Of a stretch of 64,000 nucleotides of DNA, positions 44,578 through 50,899 are shown in pieces (the stretch's first letter is position 1; each line of letters starts with the position of its first letter). Below the pieces are notes generated by a model. It saw nothing but the letters and a program-made list of their open reading frames with translations, had not been told where the DNA came from and made no database searches. The position numbers and the translations under genes were made by a program. This stretch comes from Verrucomicrobiota bacterium. GTDB taxonomy: Bacteria; Verrucomicrobiota; Verrucomicrobiia; Limisphaerales; Pedosphaeraceae. Location: positions 1,873 through 65,872 of the forward strand of contig JAJPHR010000074.1 of the NCBI GenBank assembly GCA_021325145.1. Reading direction: 5' to 3'.

Positions 44578-45456
44578 ATGTCCCGAACCCTGCAAAAGCA
44601 GTCTCCCTGCAAAGTCAATCTGCTGCTTAACATCCTGGGCAAGCGCCCGGATGGATTTCACGAATTGGAAACCGTGATGCAGCCGGTCAACTTTTGTGAT
44701 GAACTGCACTTTGCCCGTTCCGGCCAGGCCATTCAACTCACCTGCAGCGATCCCAGCCTGCCCGTTGATTCCCGGAACCTGGTCCATCGCGCCGCCGCCG
44801 CCTTTATGGAAGCCGCCGGAATCCAGGAAGGCGTGCAAATCCATCTCGAAAAGAAGATTCCCCAAGCTGCGGGTTTGGGCGGCGGCAGCGGCAATGCCGC
44901 GACGACTCTGTTGGGCTTAAACGAGCTGTTTGACGGCCCGCTCCCGGGCAAAAAACTGCACTCCATCGCCGCCGTGCTGGGCTCCGACATTCCTTTCTTC
45001 CTGCAAACCAAACCGGCTTTGGCCACCGGACGAGGCGAGCAGATCGCGCCGCTGGATTTTTTTCCGGCCTTGCGCGGCACAATGCTGGTGCTGGTCCATC
45101 CCGGATTCGGCATCTCCACGGCCTGGTCGTACCAGAATCTGGCGAGATTCCCGGACGCTCTGAACGGCAAGCCGGGCCGGGCCCGGAAACTCGTCGAACT
45201 GCTTCAAACCAAAACCCTCACAGAGGCGGCTTCTGAGTTTTACAATTCGTTGGAGGCTCCAGCATTGGAGAAATATCCGTTCTTGGCGCTGCTTCAGGAA
45301 TTCTTTCGCGCCCATGGCGTCGCCGCCACGCTCATGTCCGGAAGCGGTTCGACGACATTTGCCATCGCCCACGATCACGCCACGGCAGAACGGTTGACCG
45401 CCAAACTCAAACCCAAATTTGGCGAAAACACCTGGACCGCCATCGTCCCGCTTTGA
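44578..45456 (+). CDS. ispE: 4-diphosphocytidyl-2-C-methyl-D-erythritol kinase (MEP pathway).
   Basis: GHMP kinase motif IPQAAGLGGGSGNAATTLLGL. N-terminal KVNLLLNILGKRPDGFHELETV, typical of IspE. Length 292 aa. Confidence 0.9.
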   Translation: MSRTLQKQSPCKVNLLLNILGKRPDGFHELETVMQPVNFCDELHFARSGQAIQLTCSDPSLPVDSRNLVHRAAAAFMEAAGIQEGVQIHLEKKIPQAAGLGGGSGNAATTLLGLNELFDGPLPGKKLHSIAAVLGSDIPFFLQTKPALATGRGEQIAPLDFFPALRGTMLVLVHPGFGISTAWSYQNLARFPDALNGKPGRARKLVELLQTKTLTEAASEFYNSLEAPALEKYPFLALLQEFFRAHGVAATLMSGSGSTTFAIAHDHATAERLTAKLKPKFGENTWTAIVPL

Positions 45457-45577: not shown

Positions 45578-47047
45578 ATGGCAAAAGTCCTGTTGGTGGA
45601 TGATGAATTGACCATGGTTCAAATGGTCACCGAAATGCTCCGCTCCGAGGGGCACGAAGTCTTCCCCTTTACCAATTCCAAGGACGCCCTTGCCGCGCTC
45701 GAAACCCATCTCCCGGAAGTCGTGGTCACGGACCTATATCTCGACAAAACCCGCGCCCACGGCCTGGAGATCCTTCAGAAAGCCCGCTCGATCACGCCCC
45801 CGGCCAGCGTCATTGTCATCACCGCTTTTGGCTCCATCGAAACCGCCGTCGAAGCCATGAAAAGCGGCGCGTATGATTACTTGGAAAAGCCCTTCAAACT
45901 GGATGAGCTGAACCTCTGCATCCAGCGCGCCCTTTCCTACAACGAAGCCATTTCGGAAAATCTTTACCTCCGCAAACAGCTTCGCAAGAAATACCAGTTC
46001 AGCCAGATCATCGGCACTTCGCCCAAGATGCAGGCCGTCTTCAAGATGGTCGAACGCGTCGCCGACACGGACAGCACCATTCTCATTTTGGGCGAAAGTG
46101 GCACCGGCAAGGAACTGGTCGCCCGCGCCCTGCACTTCAACAGCCGGCGTCAGTTCGCACCCTTCATTCCCGTCAATTGCTCCGCCCTCCCCGAAAACCT
46201 TCTCGAGTCCGAGCTATTCGGCCATCGTAAAGGCTCCTTTACTGGTGCGGTCACTGATAAAAAAGGTCTGTTCCACGAGGCCGATGGCGGCACGATCTTT
46301 CTCGACGAAGTCGGGTCCATGTCCGCGATGCTGCAGAGCCGTCTTCTCCGCGTCTTGCAGGAACGCGAGGTCCGCCGCATTGGCGACAACACGCCCACGT
46401 ACATCAACGTTCGCGTCCTCGCCGCCACCAACGAGCCGCTCGAAAAGAAGATCAAGGAAGGCTCGTTCCGCGAAGACCTCTATTACCGTCTGAACGTCAT
46501 CGCCATCACGCTGCCGAGCCTGCGCGAACGCGGCGAGGACATTCCCTTGCTTGTGGCCCATTTCCTGAAAAACAAGATCAACCCGCGCACCGGCCATCCC
46601 GTTCAGATCACCCGCCAGGCCATGGAAGTCCTCAGCGCGCACAATTGGCCCGGCAACGTGCGCGAACTCGAAAATGCCATCGAACGCGCGGCCACCCTCT
46701 GCGAGGACAACGTCATCCAGGTGAACGATCTTCCTCCCAGCCTGGTGCGCAATCTGCCGTTGTCCAGCACCGTCATCCAGGCTCAGCCTGCCGACATTGC
46801 CCAGCTTCCCGTCACTGGGGAACCTTCCCCGAGCCTTTATCCCCTCCAGGGCGCCCACGCGCCCGCTTCCGCCGGGGGCCAACCCGCGTCGCAATCCGAT
46901 ATTCCGCTCAAGGATTACCTCCGCGAGCAGGAGGTTGCCTATCTCAACCGCACGCTCGCTCAAACCGGCGGCGACAAGGAGAAAGCCGCCCTCATCCTCG
47001 GCATCAGTCTCGCGACTCTTTACCGCAAGCTCTCCGAAGAAGGATGA
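45578..47047 (+). CDS. NtrC-family sigma-54-dependent response regulator (REC + AAA+ + Fis HTH), 489 aa.
   Basis: REC domain with D54-equivalent (VVVTDLYLDK). GESGTGKE, ESELFGH, GAFTGA. C-terminal HTH KEKAALILGISLATLYRKL. Confidence 0.9.
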   Translation: MAKVLLVDDELTMVQMVTEMLRSEGHEVFPFTNSKDALAALETHLPEVVVTDLYLDKTRAHGLEILQKARSITPPASVIVITAFGSIETAVEAMKSGAYDYLEKPFKLDELNLCIQRALSYNEAISENLYLRKQLRKKYQFSQIIGTSPKMQAVFKMVERVADTDSTILILGESGTGKELVARALHFNSRRQFAPFIPVNCSALPENLLESELFGHRKGSFTGAVTDKKGLFHEADGGTIFLDEVGSMSAMLQSRLLRVLQEREVRRIGDNTPTYINVRVLAATNEPLEKKIKEGSFREDLYYRLNVIAITLPSLRERGEDIPLLVAHFLKNKINPRTGHPVQITRQAMEVLSAHNWPGNVRELENAIERAATLCEDNVIQVNDLPPSLVRNLPLSSTVIQAQPADIAQLPVTGEPSPSLYPLQGAHAPASAGGQPASQSDIPLKDYLREQEVAYLNRTLAQTGGDKEKAALILGISLATLYRKLSEEG

Positions 47048-47200
47048 GCTGGGAGCCGCGTGCTCCATGGGGGGCGCACCCCGGTTTTTTGGATCCTCGC
47101 GGGGTAAACCACCCAATTGCGTCCCGTTAACATCGAAGTTTTGTTGCCATAGGTAAGTAGTACGCTGCCTGTGGCTCCCAGGCGGCCCAAAGGAGGCAGA

Positions 47201-47398
47201 ATGAAATTAATCGTCTTAATACTTGGCGTGCTCACCCTGGTTGCCACCGCTGGATGCGAATCAGGCCACGAAGGCTACAGGAACAGTGGCGGTTACGGCT
47301 ACGGTGACGAACGCGGCACCGCTTATGGCCAGGGTTACCAAACCTATCCAAACCCGGAGTACGAGCAAAAATACGAGGACCATGAATGGCACCGCTGA
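47201..47398 (+). CDS. Tiny lipoprotein (65 aa) with Gly/Tyr/acidic/His-rich mature peptide (copy 1 of tandem pair).
   Basis: Strong SD AAAGGAGGCAGA then ATG. Lipobox LVATAGC. Mature part CESGHEGYRNSGGYGYGDERGTAYGQGYQTYPNPEYEQKYEDHEWHR. Confidence 0.7.
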   Translation: MKLIVLILGVLTLVATAGCESGHEGYRNSGGYGYGDERGTAYGQGYQTYPNPEYEQKYEDHEWHR

Positions 47399-47594
47399 TT
47401 CTCGGGAGGGCGGAAAGCCGGCAAGGCAGGGACATCGCGCTGCAATGTCCCTGCCCGCGTTTCGGCGGGCGGAACGCGCTGGCCGAGGCGCGCGATTGCA
47501 GGCCATTCGTTGTTCCCTTGCCTGACGCTGCGCTTCCGTCTTCGCTCGGAAGCTACGGCGAGACAAGCGGCGTAGCGTGATGAAATGCGCTCTT

Positions 47595-47612
47595 GTCACC
47601 AGAACTGGTGAC
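47595..47612. promoter_or_regulatory. Inverted repeat GTCACCAG-aa-CTGGTGAC (8-bp arms, 2-nt spacer) within the conserved 3' element of repeat unit 1.
   Basis: Read directly from sequence. A conserved counterpart lies at 48132-48149 in unit 2. Confidence 0.5.
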
Positions 47613-47687
47613 TGGATCAGGACGGCTTTCGTGGTAGAGTAGCGGTGTTGTTGCTGCACTTTGTTCTCAAGTGTGCCACGTGTGAAA

Positions 47688-47719
47688 AGGCCGGACCCGT
47701 TGTCCGGCCCTTCTTTTTT
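47688..47719 (+). terminator. Rho-independent terminator GGCCGGACCCgttGTCCGGCCC + TTCTTTTTT ending repeat unit 1.
   Basis: GC-rich 9-10 bp stem, 3-4 nt loop and a U-run. It is duplicated, with one substitution, at 48226-48257. Confidence 0.7.
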
Positions 47720-47830
47720 CCAGCTTTCCCCGGTAAATCACCCAATTGAACCGGGGTCATTTCTGCGTTTTATTTGTATCAAGAAAGTAATGCTGCTTGC
47801 GACTCCCGAGCGGCGCAAAGGAGGCAAAAA

Positions 47831-48013
47831 ATGAGATTGATCGTTTTAATTCTCGGTGTGGCCACCCTGATCGCCACTGCTGGATGTGAGTCGGAGCACG
47901 AAGAGCACAGGGAGCGTGGCGGCTACGGATATGGAGATAATGGCTACGGATATGGCCACCACGACCACGACGATTACCATGGATACGGACACGAACATGA
48001 TTGGGACCACTGA
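47831..48013 (+). CDS. Tiny lipoprotein (60 aa), paralog of 47201..47398 (copy 2). Mature peptide CESEHEEHRERGGYGYGDNGYGYGHHDHDDYHGYGHEHDWDH.
   Basis: Strong SD AAAGGAGGCAAAAA then ATG. Lipobox LIATAGC. Its His/Asp/Gly/Tyr-rich tail and upstream and downstream flanks are homologous to unit 1. Confidence 0.7.
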   Translation: MRLIVLILGVATLIATAGCESEHEEHRERGGYGYGDNGYGYGHHDHDDYHGYGHEHDWDH

Positions 48014-48131
48014 GTAAATGGGGTTTTGCGGGCCAGACCAATCAAGCCTTCCACCCCGCCCTGCGGCCGGTTTAGCGTCGCAATGACGCGGGATGGAAGC
48101 GTGGAATCCGTTAATGTCCGAAACGCGCCTT

Positions 48132-48149
48132 GTCACCAGTACTGGTGAC
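48132..48149. promoter_or_regulatory. Perfect 18-bp palindrome GTCACCAGTACTGGTGAC in repeat unit 2 (counterpart of 47595-47612).
   Basis: Read directly from sequence. Confidence 0.5.
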
Positions 48150-48225
48150 TGGCGCGGAATGGCCTTCATGATAATCTAATACCGTTGTTGCTGCACTTTG
48201 TTCTCAAGTGCGCCACGTGTGAAAA

Positions 48226-48257
48226 GGCCGGACCTGTTGTCCGGCCCTTCTTTTTTT
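48226..48257 (+). terminator. Rho-independent terminator GGCCGGACCtgttGTCCGGCCC + TTCTTTTTTT ending repeat unit 2.
   Basis: Same architecture as 47688-47719. Confidence 0.7.
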
Positions 48258-48625
48258 ACCCCTTCCAAGCTCTCGCTCACCAGGTTCTCTCTCAACTCAC
48301 CTGCGTTAAGCTGCCTGCGTTTTATAGCTTCCTCGAGCAATTGGTTTTCTGGGTGCTCCTTTCGGCCACCTTCGCCTGACGTCGATATCTGCCAAAATCG
48401 GACTCAAAGGCGTGGATTCGGACTTCGAGACGCTGGTCCGCACCGCCGTGATCTTAAATAATGCCGTTTCACAAACACGAGGATCTGTTTTGCTTGACAC
48501 ACCTCAGTCTTCGTGTGTAGTAGCTCTCTCTATCAGGTAACACCTACACCAATCTCAGCTTTCCGCTGTGGCGAAGCATTTTGGTGTTCCGTTTTGGAAT
48601 CAGAAGTTGGCCGACTGAATGAACT

Positions 48626-50899
48626 ATGAAAACATCAGGATTAATGCTTGCCAGTGCCGCCGTGTGCGGCCTGCTCACTGCTGTAAACCCCGCCTTTGCT
48701 CAAGGGACGGCCTTCGCCTACCAGGGACGGCTCCAAAACAATGGCAGCCCGGCCAATGGCATGTATAACCTGACGTTCTCGCTGTTCACCACTGGCAGCG
48801 GAGGAGCGGCGATAGCCGGGCCGGTGACGAACAATGGTGTCTTCATTACCAACGGTCTGTTCACCGCAACGATGGATTTTGGCTCAAATGTTTGGAACGG
48901 CGCGACCAATTGGCTGCAGATTAGCGTGGCGACCAACGGAGTCAGCAGCTTCAGCCCTTTGACACCGCGTCAGCAGTTGATGCCTGTGCCTTATGCGATG
49001 TTCGCCGAGTCAGTTGGCAGTTTTAGCGGGACCGTGCCGTCCGGCGCGCTGGCCGGAACGTATTCCAGCGCCATCACGTTGAACAACGCCGCCAACAGCT
49101 TCATTGGCAATGGAGCCGGGTTGACTGGCGTCAATGCACTGACGCTCGGCGGTTTCGGGTCCTGCAACCTGCCCTGCTACTGGAATTTGACAGGCAATGC
49201 AGGCACAATGGCCGGGCTGAACTTTGTGGGAACGACCGACAACCAGCCACTCGAAATGCACGTCAACAACCTCCGTGCCATGCGATATGAATTCGGCGGT
49301 ATCTCAGCTTACGCGGCTTCACTTGGCTACAGCGTTCCAAACGGCGCTCCCAATATTATCGGCGGCTCTCCAGCCAATGCGGCAGCGCCAGGCGCCGTAG
49401 GCGTGGTCATCGCAGGCGGCGGCGCTACGAATTATCTGGGCCTTGGTTCCTACACCAATTGCGTGTCGGCGGATTTTGGCGTGATCGGCGGCGGGGGCGG
49501 CAACCAGATTCAGACTGGTGCTTTTGGCTCGATCGTTGGTGGCGGTTTTTTCAACGCTGTGAGCGGGACGAACTCTTCGATTGCGGGTGGATATTCCAAT
49601 TTCGTGGCCAGTGTAGGTGAGTTTATTGGCGGAGGGTTGCAAAACAGCATTAACCCATTGTCAACCGGCAATGGCTATGGCTCTACCATCGGCGGCGGCC
49701 TCAACAACACGATTCAGGACGGTTTCCCCTTTTTCGCCAGTTCGAACTATTTTATTGGTCGAAACACGGTCGGCGGCGGCGGCGGCAACATCATTAGAGG
49801 CGGCGGTGATGGCGGGGCGAATGGCAACACCATCGCCGGTGGAGAAAACAACGCCATATTTTCTGGCGCTGCGGGGACCGGCGATAACACGATCAGTGGC
49901 GGGGCGCAGAACATAATGGGCGCACCCGATGGCGGAGCCAGCGCCTGTGTTATTGGCGGAGGTTTTGGCAATCTCATCGCGGCCGGGGAGTCGTATTACG
50001 CCTGCACAATCGCGGGCGGCTATAGCAATACCATCGGAGATTTTCTTAGCGTCTTTGAACAATGCACGGTGGGAGGCGGCGCAAATAACTTTGCGAATGG
50101 CAACGGAACAACGATAGCCGGCGGGACTGGAAACACAATTCAGGCTTCTGGTGGGAACACCCTTGGTTCCACCATTAGCGGTGGTGACACCAACCTCATT
50201 ACCGACAGCGACTACGCCAGCATTGGCGGAGGGCGCGGCAATGCGGTGGCTGGCGACTTCGCCACCATTCCGGGCGGGCAGAACAATCTGGCGACCAATT
50301 CAGCCTTCGCTGCCGGGCACCGCGCCAAAGCGGTCCAGACGGGCTCATTCGTCTGGGCAGACTCGACGGACCGCGATTACAATCCGTATTCCTATTCGAA
50401 GCCGGGCGGAGGCACCAATTCCTTCAACGTCCGCGCCACCGGTGGGGTTTACCTCGCGACGGCGGTGGATGCTTCCACGGGTCAACCCACCTCAGGCGTC
50501 TATGTATCGGCCGGCGGTTCGGGTTGGAACTCCTACAGTGACCGGAATGCGAAAACGAACTTTGCCGCAGTGAATGGGAGCGACATCCTCAACCGCTTCG
50601 CCACCATCCCCATTTTGAGTTGGAATTACAAAAGCCAGGGCCCGGATGTCCGCCATCTTGGGCCGATGGCGCAAGATTTTAATGCCGCGTTCGAGGTGGG
50701 AGACGCGGATAAAGCGGGTGAAAAGAAGTTCATCAATTCCCTGGACATCGATGGTGTGGCGCTGGCGGCCATCCAAGGCTTGAATCAGAAGTTGGACGAA
50801 AAGGACGCGGAAATTCGTCAGCTCAAATCGCAAAACGAAACTTTCGAGAAACGGCTGGCTGCTTTGGAAAAGCTGGCCAAATCGCCCGCTGACCAATAA
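48626..50899 (+). CDS. Secreted tail-fibre-like beta-helix protein with Gly-rich (GG/GGG) repeats and a C-terminal S74 intramolecular-chaperone domain, 757 aa. Paralog of 23836..26145.
   Basis: Signal peptide MKTSGLMLASAAVCGLLTAVNPAFAQG. The N-terminus is homologous to the paralog (QGTAFAYQGRLQNNGSPANGMYNLTFSLF). C-terminal SDRNAK (50537-) ...ILSWNYK...RHLGPMAQDF...GVALAAIQGLNQKL plus a coiled coil. Confidence 0.8.
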   Translation: MKTSGLMLASAAVCGLLTAVNPAFAQGTAFAYQGRLQNNGSPANGMYNLTFSLFTTGSGGAAIAGPVTNNGVFITNGLFTATMDFGSNVWNGATNWLQISVATNGVSSFSPLTPRQQLMPVPYAMFAESVGSFSGTVPSGALAGTYSSAITLNNAANSFIGNGAGLTGVNALTLGGFGSCNLPCYWNLTGNAGTMAGLNFVGTTDNQPLEMHVNNLRAMRYEFGGISAYAASLGYSVPNGAPNIIGGSPANAAAPGAVGVVIAGGGATNYLGLGSYTNCVSADFGVIGGGGGNQIQTGAFGSIVGGGFFNAVSGTNSSIAGGYSNFVASVGEFIGGGLQNSINPLSTGNGYGSTIGGGLNNTIQDGFPFFASSNYFIGRNTVGGGGGNIIRGGGDGGANGNTIAGGENNAIFSGAAGTGDNTISGGAQNIMGAPDGGASACVIGGGFGNLIAAGESYYACTIAGGYSNTIGDFLSVFEQCTVGGGANNFANGNGTTIAGGTGNTIQASGGNTLGSTISGGDTNLITDSDYASIGGGRGNAVAGDFATIPGGQNNLATNSAFAAGHRAKAVQTGSFVWADSTDRDYNPYSYSKPGGGTNSFNVRATGGVYLATAVDASTGQPTSGVYVSAGGSGWNSYSDRNAKTNFAAVNGSDILNRFATIPILSWNYKSQGPDVRHLGPMAQDFNAAFEVGDADKAGEKKFINSLDIDGVALAAIQGLNQKLDEKDAEIRQLKSQNETFEKRLAALEKLAKSPADQ

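Follow-up and report, generated by a model that had tools for sequence, protein, structure and literature searches.

Two unrelated small-gene families, a putative lipoprotein and a predicted autonomous small RNA, in a tandem duplication of a Verrucomicrobiota bacterium

What is the functional unit of a tandem repeat that carries, twice over, a tiny open reading frame (ORF), a palindrome and a terminator, and that begins close behind the gene of a sigma-54 activator? The repeat in question lies at 47095-48265 of a 64-kb stretch of DNA from a Verrucomicrobiota bacterium of the Pedosphaeraceae (contig JAJPHR010000074.1, positions 1,873 to 65,872), which in its full length we call the window and whose coordinates we use throughout. 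A preliminary description of the locus had taken peptide, palindrome and terminator to be one functional cassette under the control of the neighbouring regulator. Our comparisons point elsewhere. We consider it probable that the locus holds two unrelated kinds of small gene, one for a lipoprotein and the other for an autonomous small RNA (sRNA), and that an old tandem duplication would have copied the two together, giving the two units seen here.

The layout of the repeat is largely as first described. Two small ORFs are present on the + strand, ORF1 at 47201-47398 (65 aa) and ORF2 at 47831-48013 (60 aa), each preceded by a strong Shine-Dalgarno (SD) sequence, which had been called near-perfect. 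Pairwise alignment and repeat finding give four conserved blocks with divergent sequence between them: a box, GGTAAAYCACCCAATTG, at 47103 and 47732, ~90 nt before the ATG; a leader block with the SD at 47164-47201 and 47792-47829, 82% identical; the 5' half of the coding region; and a 3' element of 128 nt at 47592-47719 and 48129-48256, 85% identical, whose last ~73 nt differ between the copies at two positions only. The palindrome, the box and a 27-nt core of the body of the 3' element occur twice each in the 64 kb, against shuffle-expected numbers of 0.18, 0.24 and 0.00. All the elements thus sit in two tandem units of the same architecture at the places first assigned to them. The unit size of ~630 bp stands for the 5' blocks (period 628-630 nt) and fails for the 3' element (period 537 nt), because the spacer after the stop codon is ~90 nt shorter in unit 2. 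Could the repeat be a single copy doubled during assembly? An independent ENA metagenome contig of 820 nt from a near-identical strain (L002) shows the same order, peptide 1, 3' element, box and peptide 2, and differs from the window by point substitutions and one spacer deletion, so that an assembly artefact can be discounted as the origin of the tandem arrangement.

What, then, are the two ORFs? The features concerned are as follows.

47164..47200, + strand: leader of peptide 1, with a small hairpin (GCCTG 47167-47171 / CAGGC 47179-47183) and the SD AAGGAGG at 47190-47196
47201..47398, + strand: putative small lipoprotein gene 1, 65 aa, mature part CESGHEGYRNSGGYGYGDERGTAYGQGYQTYPNPEYEQKYEDHEWHR
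47792..47830, + strand: leader of peptide 2 with its SD, from repeat finding
47831..48013, + strand: putative small lipoprotein gene 2, 60 aa, mature part CESEHEEHRERGGYGYGDNGYGYGHHDHDDYHGYGHEHDWDH

As the first reading had it, the peptides resemble no recognisable family. Pfam assigns no family to any of 61 members, the two window peptides included; NCBIfam gives the window peptides only a chance match of 9.7 bits against a cut-off of 450; among PDB chains there is no relative of the family, the best E-value being 0.24; and alignment A3 finds no relative in 185,579 species-representative genomes. Among 5.8 billion proteins a word-indexed search came up with two matches only, one a related protein of 64 aa and the other a copy 98% identical. 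When 1.84 billion cluster representatives were searched exhaustively by HMMER, a profile of three sequences brought up 59 proteins at E<1e-3, nearly all of 53-84 aa, and the members looked up are metagenomic, unnamed or labelled 'hypothetical protein'. All members start with MK or MR followed by ~15 hydrophobic residues (alignment A4). The lipobox Cys is invariant in 61/61 sequences, with a preceding Gly conserved to at least 90%; the lipobox is atypical in that position -3 is often Thr, Val or Ala, not Leu. In both window peptides the signal peptide ends in ...ATAG, directly followed by the Cys. The signal peptide and the invariant Cys agree with the earlier view of the ORFs as lipoprotein-type genes, and these comparisons support a genuine family of small lipoproteins, so far undescribed and without a match among known families.

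The mature part is no less characteristic. Right after the Cys comes an acidic/His run, typically CEEEHEHHH, followed by a core GGxY..GYGH(G)EY and a tail of Tyr, Pro, Asp, His and Trp, the family consensus being CE(E)EHEHHH..GGAYDGxYxGYGHGEY. With a median length of 45 aa, the mature part consists of 16.9% Gly, 16.8% Tyr, 14.7% His, 10.3% Glu and 10.1% Asp (20% Asp+Glu together) and of 6.4% hydrophobic residues, and residues +2 to +12 contain a median of 3 His and 4 acidic residues. Given the family alignment, AlphaFold2 predicts with confidence only the signal helix (residues 3-17, predicted local distance difference test (pLDDT) ~90) and gives the mature part a pLDDT of 51-57 and no secondary structure. 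The enrichment in Gly, Tyr, His, Asp and Glu and the lack of secondary structure, first noticed in the window, are thus borne out by the family. We infer that the mature peptides are lipid-anchored and, as predicted, intrinsically disordered: a pre-lipoprotein of ~60 aa would be cut by signal peptidase II to leave a disordered peptide of ~45 aa on its lipid anchor.

From composition alone, the most economical guess at a function would be divalent-metal binding, because the conserved His/acidic cluster adjoins the lipid anchor. Placed right after the presumably acylated Cys, the cluster might make the peptide a periplasm-facing, membrane-tethered binder or buffer of divalent metal. A rival of this guess takes the ORFs for precursors of ribosomally synthesised modified peptides, or for Tyr-cross-linked envelope or matrix peptides. 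Such a view would account for the extreme content of Tyr (17%) and Gly (17%), and a radical-SAM gene adjoins several members (L001, L003-L005). That gene, however, is convergent and CofH/Mqn-like (PF19288) and is missing from other contexts; no conserved modification or export genes lie nearby; the invariant lipobox Cys argues for a lipoprotein fate; and the best-conserved segment is the His/acidic cluster. We regard modified or cross-linked peptides as unlikely, and continue with lipoproteins that perhaps bind metal. The genomic contexts of the family vary: besides the convergent CofH/Mqn-type radical-SAM gene, they include the gap between an NTP-transferase gene and argS, a citrate synthase gene and a COXG-type gene. 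At the loci of the 10 other lineages there is no response regulator, no second copy of the family and no 3' element.

The peptide genes share a further element, which lies upstream.

47103..47119, + strand: family-specific upstream motif, copy 1 (GGTAAACCACCCAATTG), a variant of GGGyTTwnACCCCATGG and a candidate promoter or operator element
47732..47748, + strand: family-specific upstream motif, copy 2 (GGTAAATCACCCAATTG), from motif comparison

A motif GGGyTTwn-ACCCCATGG is present at every peptide locus examined, that is, at the two genes of the window and in 10 other lineages, where its distance to the ATG is ~52-57 nt (40 nt in L006). Its core reads ACCCCATGG in the family and CACCCAATTG in the window, and the window box is evidently a local variant of the family motif. 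Loose regular expressions of the motif pick out every family gene in the correct orientation and only two other places in 1.06 Mb of mostly Verrucomicrobial sequence. In the window each box starts ~13-18 nt after a terminator T-run, which leaves little room for a promoter upstream of it; the box is probably part of a promoter or an operator overlapping one, and the peptide genes would be driven through this cis-element of their own. Two other readings of the motif were set aside: an upstream ORF starting at the ATG inside CCCCATGG has inconsistent lengths, and neither L133 nor the window has this ATG; an RNA hairpin of GGGG..CCCC meets variants that, judged by eye, are uncompensated. Nor is a likeness to the RpoH -10 element, CCCCATnT, supported; a conserved TTGAAA -35 is absent here.

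Some smaller observations on the 5' regions of the family may be recorded here. The leader hairpin of peptide 1 is kept in unit 2 through one double change, C-G to T-A (judged by eye), and its RNAfold z-scores are not significant. In L133 two motif-like copies, ACCCATG and CACCCCATAG, stand ~76 and ~52 nt upstream of the peptide ATG. Several loci (L001, L003, L132-L136) have an extended ribosome-binding block, GGAGAATCTG(nn)ATG, in which DNA conservation goes beyond a plain SD; the window genes have AAAGGAGGCA in its place. Upstream of the peptide in L003 (9735-9775) and L001 (35-60) lies a conserved hairpin, TCCACCGCAA(A)GGTGGA, followed on the minus strand by a T-run (TTTTTGTTTTT); it is terminator-like, as of a short divergent minus-strand transcript, which may be a small RNA.

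We now turn to the 3' element, for which the preliminary description had offered a protein operator or the body of a small RNA. Its predicted parts are these.

47595..47612, no strand: operator palindrome 1 (GTCACCAGAACTGGTGAC), about -52 to -35 of the sRNA promoter
47612..47640, + strand: predicted sRNA promoter 1, with a -35-like CTGGAT at 47612-47617, a 17-nt spacer and a -10 TAGAGT at 47635-47640 after TGg
47647..47719, + strand: putative sRNA copy 1, ~73 nt with inferred 5' end; G/U-rich 5' end, stem-loop, terminator at 47689-47709, T-run
48132..48149, no strand: operator palindrome 2 (GTCACCAGTACTGGTGAC), from alignment A6
48149..48177, + strand: predicted sRNA promoter 2, with a -35-like CTGGCG at 48149-48154 and a -10 TAATCT at 48172-48177 after TGa
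48184..48257, + strand: putative sRNA copy 2, ~74 nt, with a terminator at 48226-48246 and then a T-run

With the 18-mer GCACTTTGTTCTCAAGTG as search pattern, JGI metagenome contigs gave 43 loci, of which 19 match over all 138 nt of the element (nhmmer E 1e-15 to 1e-26), while the remaining 24 show no match past the 18-mer, as chance would give. Nowhere on the contigs of the 19 homologues is there a family peptide. Their neighbours are PVC-type (Planctomycetes-Verrucomicrobia-Chlamydiae) proteins of varied identity and orientation, and no conserved neighbour that might be a regulator or a target was found among them; only a PSCyt/DUF1553-type gene recurs, on five closely related contigs. In alignment A6 (21 sequences) conservation starts abruptly at the palindrome and stops at the T-run, with none upstream or downstream. 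A near-invariant TGTCACCAGnnCTGGTGACTGG is followed by a variable stretch containing TAnnnT, and then by a conserved body and a GC-rich terminator. The 18-bp palindrome, GTCACCAGnnCTGGTGAC, at 47595 and 48132 in the window, occurs once per locus and always together with the sRNA. The CACGTG segment remarked upon earlier is indeed in the window; it is lineage-specific, and the homologues have GCGTGTGTG there.

The spacing within the element varies little. Counted from the palindrome, TAnnnT begins exactly 22 nt downstream in 20/21 copies and 23 nt downstream in the remaining one; its T, A and T are invariant, its inner positions vary, and the hexamer ends 14-17 nt before the core of the body. 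Allowing 17 nt for the spacer puts the -35 on a hexamer that is CTGGCA in most copies and takes in the final base of the palindrome; the palindrome therefore spans about -52 to -35. Downstream, terminators with an 8-bp GC-rich stem and a T-run are predicted at 47689-47709 and 48226-48246, and RNAalifold pair counts give compensatory changes in the terminator stem, GC to AU in 4 sequences and GC to CG in 1. The body contains a stem-loop GCACUU/AAGUGY with the loop UGUUCUC, in which only a G-C to G-U alternation at the base is seen. A 1-nt indel separates the window and L106 from the rest and a 5-nt deletion is found in L100; the body therefore has no conserved reading frame, and it has no SD.

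Could the palindrome be an RNA hairpin after all, and the sRNA a processed fragment of a 3' untranslated region (3'UTR; type II, RNase-dependent) or a stabilising 3' structure? In silico the palindrome folds stably, unit 2 extends it by CGCGCC/GGCGCG, and in the window it is located in the 3' region of a coding gene. The variation among the 21 sequences speaks otherwise: all seven palindrome variants (A to C in 4, C to A in 2, T to G in 1) break pairing and are uncompensated, as expected of a DNA operator and not of an RNA hairpin. A hairpin would also leave the invariant T, A and T of TAnnnT at a fixed 22 nt unexplained, and at the 19 other loci, where the upstream genes vary in identity and orientation, conservation begins exactly at the palindrome. 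We judge a hairpin with a processed RNA to be distinctly improbable. The anatomy of operator, promoter and terminator and the non-coding nature of the RNA emerge clearly from the alignment, and they argue for the 3' element as an autonomous non-coding sRNA gene with its own predicted promoter, operator and terminator. Both earlier guesses, operator and small RNA, appear to be right at once, and the conservation of palindrome and 3' element extends to the 19 full-length metagenomic homologues.

The RNA matches nothing catalogued. For the window elements the best Rfam scores are terminator-driven and far below gathering (MicC RF00121, 26.5 bits against 90; SorX RF02784, 20.5 against 46.6), and 18 homologous loci give no match at gathering score. 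Blastn of the 3' element against a plasmid collection gives no match, and in the literature searched we found nothing relevant on the sRNA, the peptides or the palindrome.

How might such a gene work? Let us suppose that a dimeric transcription factor binds the 18-bp operator, which abuts the weak, CTGGCA-like -35. A sigma-70-type -10 box (TAnnnT) would follow after the 17-nt spacer, with transcription starting ~7 nt later, and the product would be a non-coding RNA of ~73 nt with a G/U-rich 5' end, a short stem-loop and an intrinsic terminator. Such an RNA would most likely act in trans by base pairing. A targeting of the adjacent peptide mRNAs is not indicated, the duplexes with their initiation regions (-21.7 to -23.6 kcal/mol) being no stronger than the window background (mean -23.8 kcal/mol). 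As to the operator, in some sequences of A6 (e.g. L089, L116, L105 and L126) a degenerate third half-site, CTGGGGAC (in others CAGGGAAT), follows the palindrome and TGG; it is a direct repeat of the right arm CTGGTGAC, and more than one dimer may bind. We compared the palindrome with sites of other regulators: CsoR/RcnR operators have the opposite polarity of G/C tracts, and the likeness is not supported; the Verrucomicrobial LexA box, TGTTC-N4-GAACA, differs from it.

Are the two genes of a unit one module? The 19 sRNA loci have no family peptide, and the 10 other peptide lineages have no 3' element. Each family thus exists and is conserved independently of the other as far as these comparisons reach, which goes against the single functional cassette, and the adjacency in the window is therefore best explained by co-duplication of a segment of ~0.55-0.63 kb. 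The two units have since diverged as a mosaic. Identity between them is 94% in the box, 77% in the leader, 79% in the signal-peptide codons (7 synonymous and 3 non-synonymous differences), 59% in the mature peptide, 26% in the post-stop spacer, 96% in the operator palindrome, 48% in the promoter spacer and 97% in the sRNA body. Enough time has therefore passed since the duplication for neutral sequence to become randomised, with box, operator and RNA body kept constant in both copies.

The alternative of a single module would make the 3' element a long regulatory 3'UTR of the peptide mRNA, with the palindrome as a hairpin before the terminator, and would have the whole driven by the NtrC-like regulator with sigma-54. 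The additional features that bear on it are the following.

45578..47047, + strand: NtrC-family sigma-54-activating response regulator (Response_reg, Sigma54_activat and HTH_8; Pfam, NCBIfam)
47068..47083, + strand: predicted terminator-like hairpin and T-run ending the regulator transcript
47425..47455, no strand: post-stop inverted repeat with 14-nt arms, 93% complementary, in a non-conserved spacer

The regulator does adjoin the units in the window, although the distance of about 150 bp first given holds for the first ATG (154 nt from the regulator stop codon) and not for the box, which is 56 nt away. Between the peptide genes and the sRNA terminator there is no canonical terminator, so that read-through is plausible. 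The half-sites CACCA/TGGTG of the palindrome also recall the enteric NtrC site, TGCACCA-N3-TGGTGCA, whose spacing is one bp shorter; the likeness is not supported. Against this, a scan with the regulator gave 80 orthologous loci, up to 86% identical in amino acids and almost all from metagenome-assembled genomes (MAGs) of Limisphaerales/Pedosphaera type, a group to which the window is thereby assigned, and none of the 80 has a family peptide, the 3' element, the palindrome or the box; the closest relatives share with the window only the regulator gene itself, their flanks not being syntenic. The regulator ends in its own terminator-like hairpin. On the + strand before the peptide or sRNA genes the best match to a GG-N10-GC sigma-54 promoter (-24/-12, TGGCAC-N5-TTGC) is 7/12, and the TGGCAG conserved behind the palindrome is not followed at the right distance by a conserved -12 GC. 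Together with the separate occurrence of element and peptide elsewhere, this makes a single module very improbable, and the signal-regulated module suggested at first loses its footing; judged by these comparisons the regulator is a neighbour only, with no support for a functional link to peptides or sRNA. It is no more than a possibility that this NtrC-family protein is the one that binds the operator, acting then on a sigma-70 promoter, or that another HTH_8 protein does so.

Beyond their stop codons the peptide genes of the window show hairpins of non-canonical type only, and under the reading as two separate genes the peptide transcripts may run on to the sRNA terminator, by analogy with sRNAs such as MicL and DapZ. 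The post-stop inverted repeat of unit 1 may be a 3' hairpin of the mRNA; at the same place unit 2 has a different hairpin-capable sequence. Within this inverted repeat, at ~47441, lies a minus-strand sigma-54 match of 10/12 (GGGCAGGGACATTGCA), antisense toward peptide gene 1; we take it to be chance, there being 47 matches of at least 9/12 window-wide. In the regulator the GAFTGA loop takes the variant form GSFTGA. No histidine kinase is encoded next to the regulator, which appears to be an orphan; upstream of it are an ispE-like GHMP kinase gene (44578-45456) and a gene for a 153-aa exported protein. Orthologues of 64-74% identity occur in seven MAGs with non-Verrucomicrobial labels (L017, L021, L027, L034, L038, L074 and L077: Methylomirabilota, Acidoferrum, Saccharimonadales, Bifidobacteriaceae, Chitinophaga pinensis, Klebsiella and Binatia), probably through mis-binning or mislabelling.

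Might the 3' element be no gene but a small mobile or repetitive sequence, of miniature inverted-repeat transposable or repetitive extragenic palindromic type? We find this barely credible: its many unrelated genomic contexts and perfect palindrome would fit, yet there is one copy per contig (counted by contig), terminal inverted repeats at both ends and target-site duplications are lacking, with a single palindrome at one end, the internal conservation has the pattern of promoter, transcript and terminator, and the window copies arose within a larger duplicated segment.

Several points weigh against our own model of two co-duplicated small genes, and we set them out together. The model is built from sequence comparison and prediction throughout. 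The -35 is weak (CTGGCA-like), and a simple sigma-70 consensus scan gave no promoter in 46900-48700. The central 18-mer of the sRNA stem-loop is invariant by construction, being the search pattern; this leaves no room for covariation in the GCACUU/AAGUGY stem, and the sample falls short of the real diversity of the family. Gene conversion could account for part of the 97% identity between the two sRNA copies of the window. For the peptides, no metal-homeostasis gene is linked to any member of the family. We still hold the model to be the probable one. One may go further and imagine the sRNA as a Verrucomicrobia-wide RNA under a dedicated sensor factor at the operator, coupled here to the lipopeptides as a two-part module for envelope metal or stress homeostasis, an RNA regulator and a periplasmic buffer amplified as a unit; we mention this doubtful idea as a long shot.

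What does the locus mean beyond itself? Both families are unannotated and conserved; each is of a known kind and neither is categorically new. To our knowledge very few regulatory sRNAs have been defined in the PVC superphylum, and in the literature searched we found none for soil Verrucomicrobia. The sRNA presented here has a clear predicted promoter, a phased palindromic operator and a terminator, and can be tested directly by experiment. The peptides, if they bind metal, would be periplasmic buffers of a new type, tethered to the membrane, in soil bacteria that are abundant and uncultured. More generally, what looks like a cassette in a single genome can be two independent, co-duplicated genes. 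Directly downstream of sRNA copy 2, at 48626-50899 (+ strand), the window encodes a repeat protein of 757 aa, rich in Gly, Asn and Ala, which carries a signal peptide and has at its C terminus an intramolecular-chaperone domain, Peptidase_S74 (endosialidase/tail-fibre type, E 4e-10).

Lastly, we compare both gene kinds with known systems. The peptides are like the entericidins (EcnA/B) and OsmB in being precursors of ~45-70 aa with a lipobox signal peptide, sometimes in tandem pairs (ecnAB); unlike them, they have no match by hidden Markov model, and the mature part is charged, aromatic and disordered, not an amphipathic helix or a glycine zipper. SilE and PcoE are periplasmic disordered metal-binding proteins, and Hpn is a His-rich metal-storage protein. 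Our peptides are likewise small, rich in metal-liganding residues and predicted to be disordered in the apo form, with periplasmic secretion as in SilE and PcoE. They differ from all three in lacking homology, in their predicted lipid anchor and mature length of ~45 aa, in candidate ligands that are His, Asp, Glu and Tyr with no Met or Cys, and in having no linked efflux or metal-resistance genes.

For the sRNA, the arrangement in the window has a counterpart in type I 3'UTR sRNAs such as MicL and DapZ, which have their own internal promoter and share the terminator of the mRNA. The window sRNA, too, lies in the 3' region of a gene without a canonical terminator, and sharing of its terminator is probable; unlike in MicL and DapZ, this arrangement is specific to the lineage, since the 19 other loci do not follow a family peptide and often have no co-oriented upstream gene. 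Another parallel is found in the enterobacterial trans-acting sRNA genes that carry the operator of a transcription factor at a sigma-70 promoter, such as RyhB with Fur, OmrA/B with OmpR, and MicF. Our sRNA has no sequence or Rfam relationship to these, and its host belongs to the Verrucomicrobiota (Limisphaerales/Pedosphaera-like). It nevertheless resembles them as a free-standing intergenic gene for a predicted RNA of ~70-100 nt, with a short 5' stem-loop, an A/U stretch, an intrinsic terminator and a dedicated palindromic operator in phase with the promoter.

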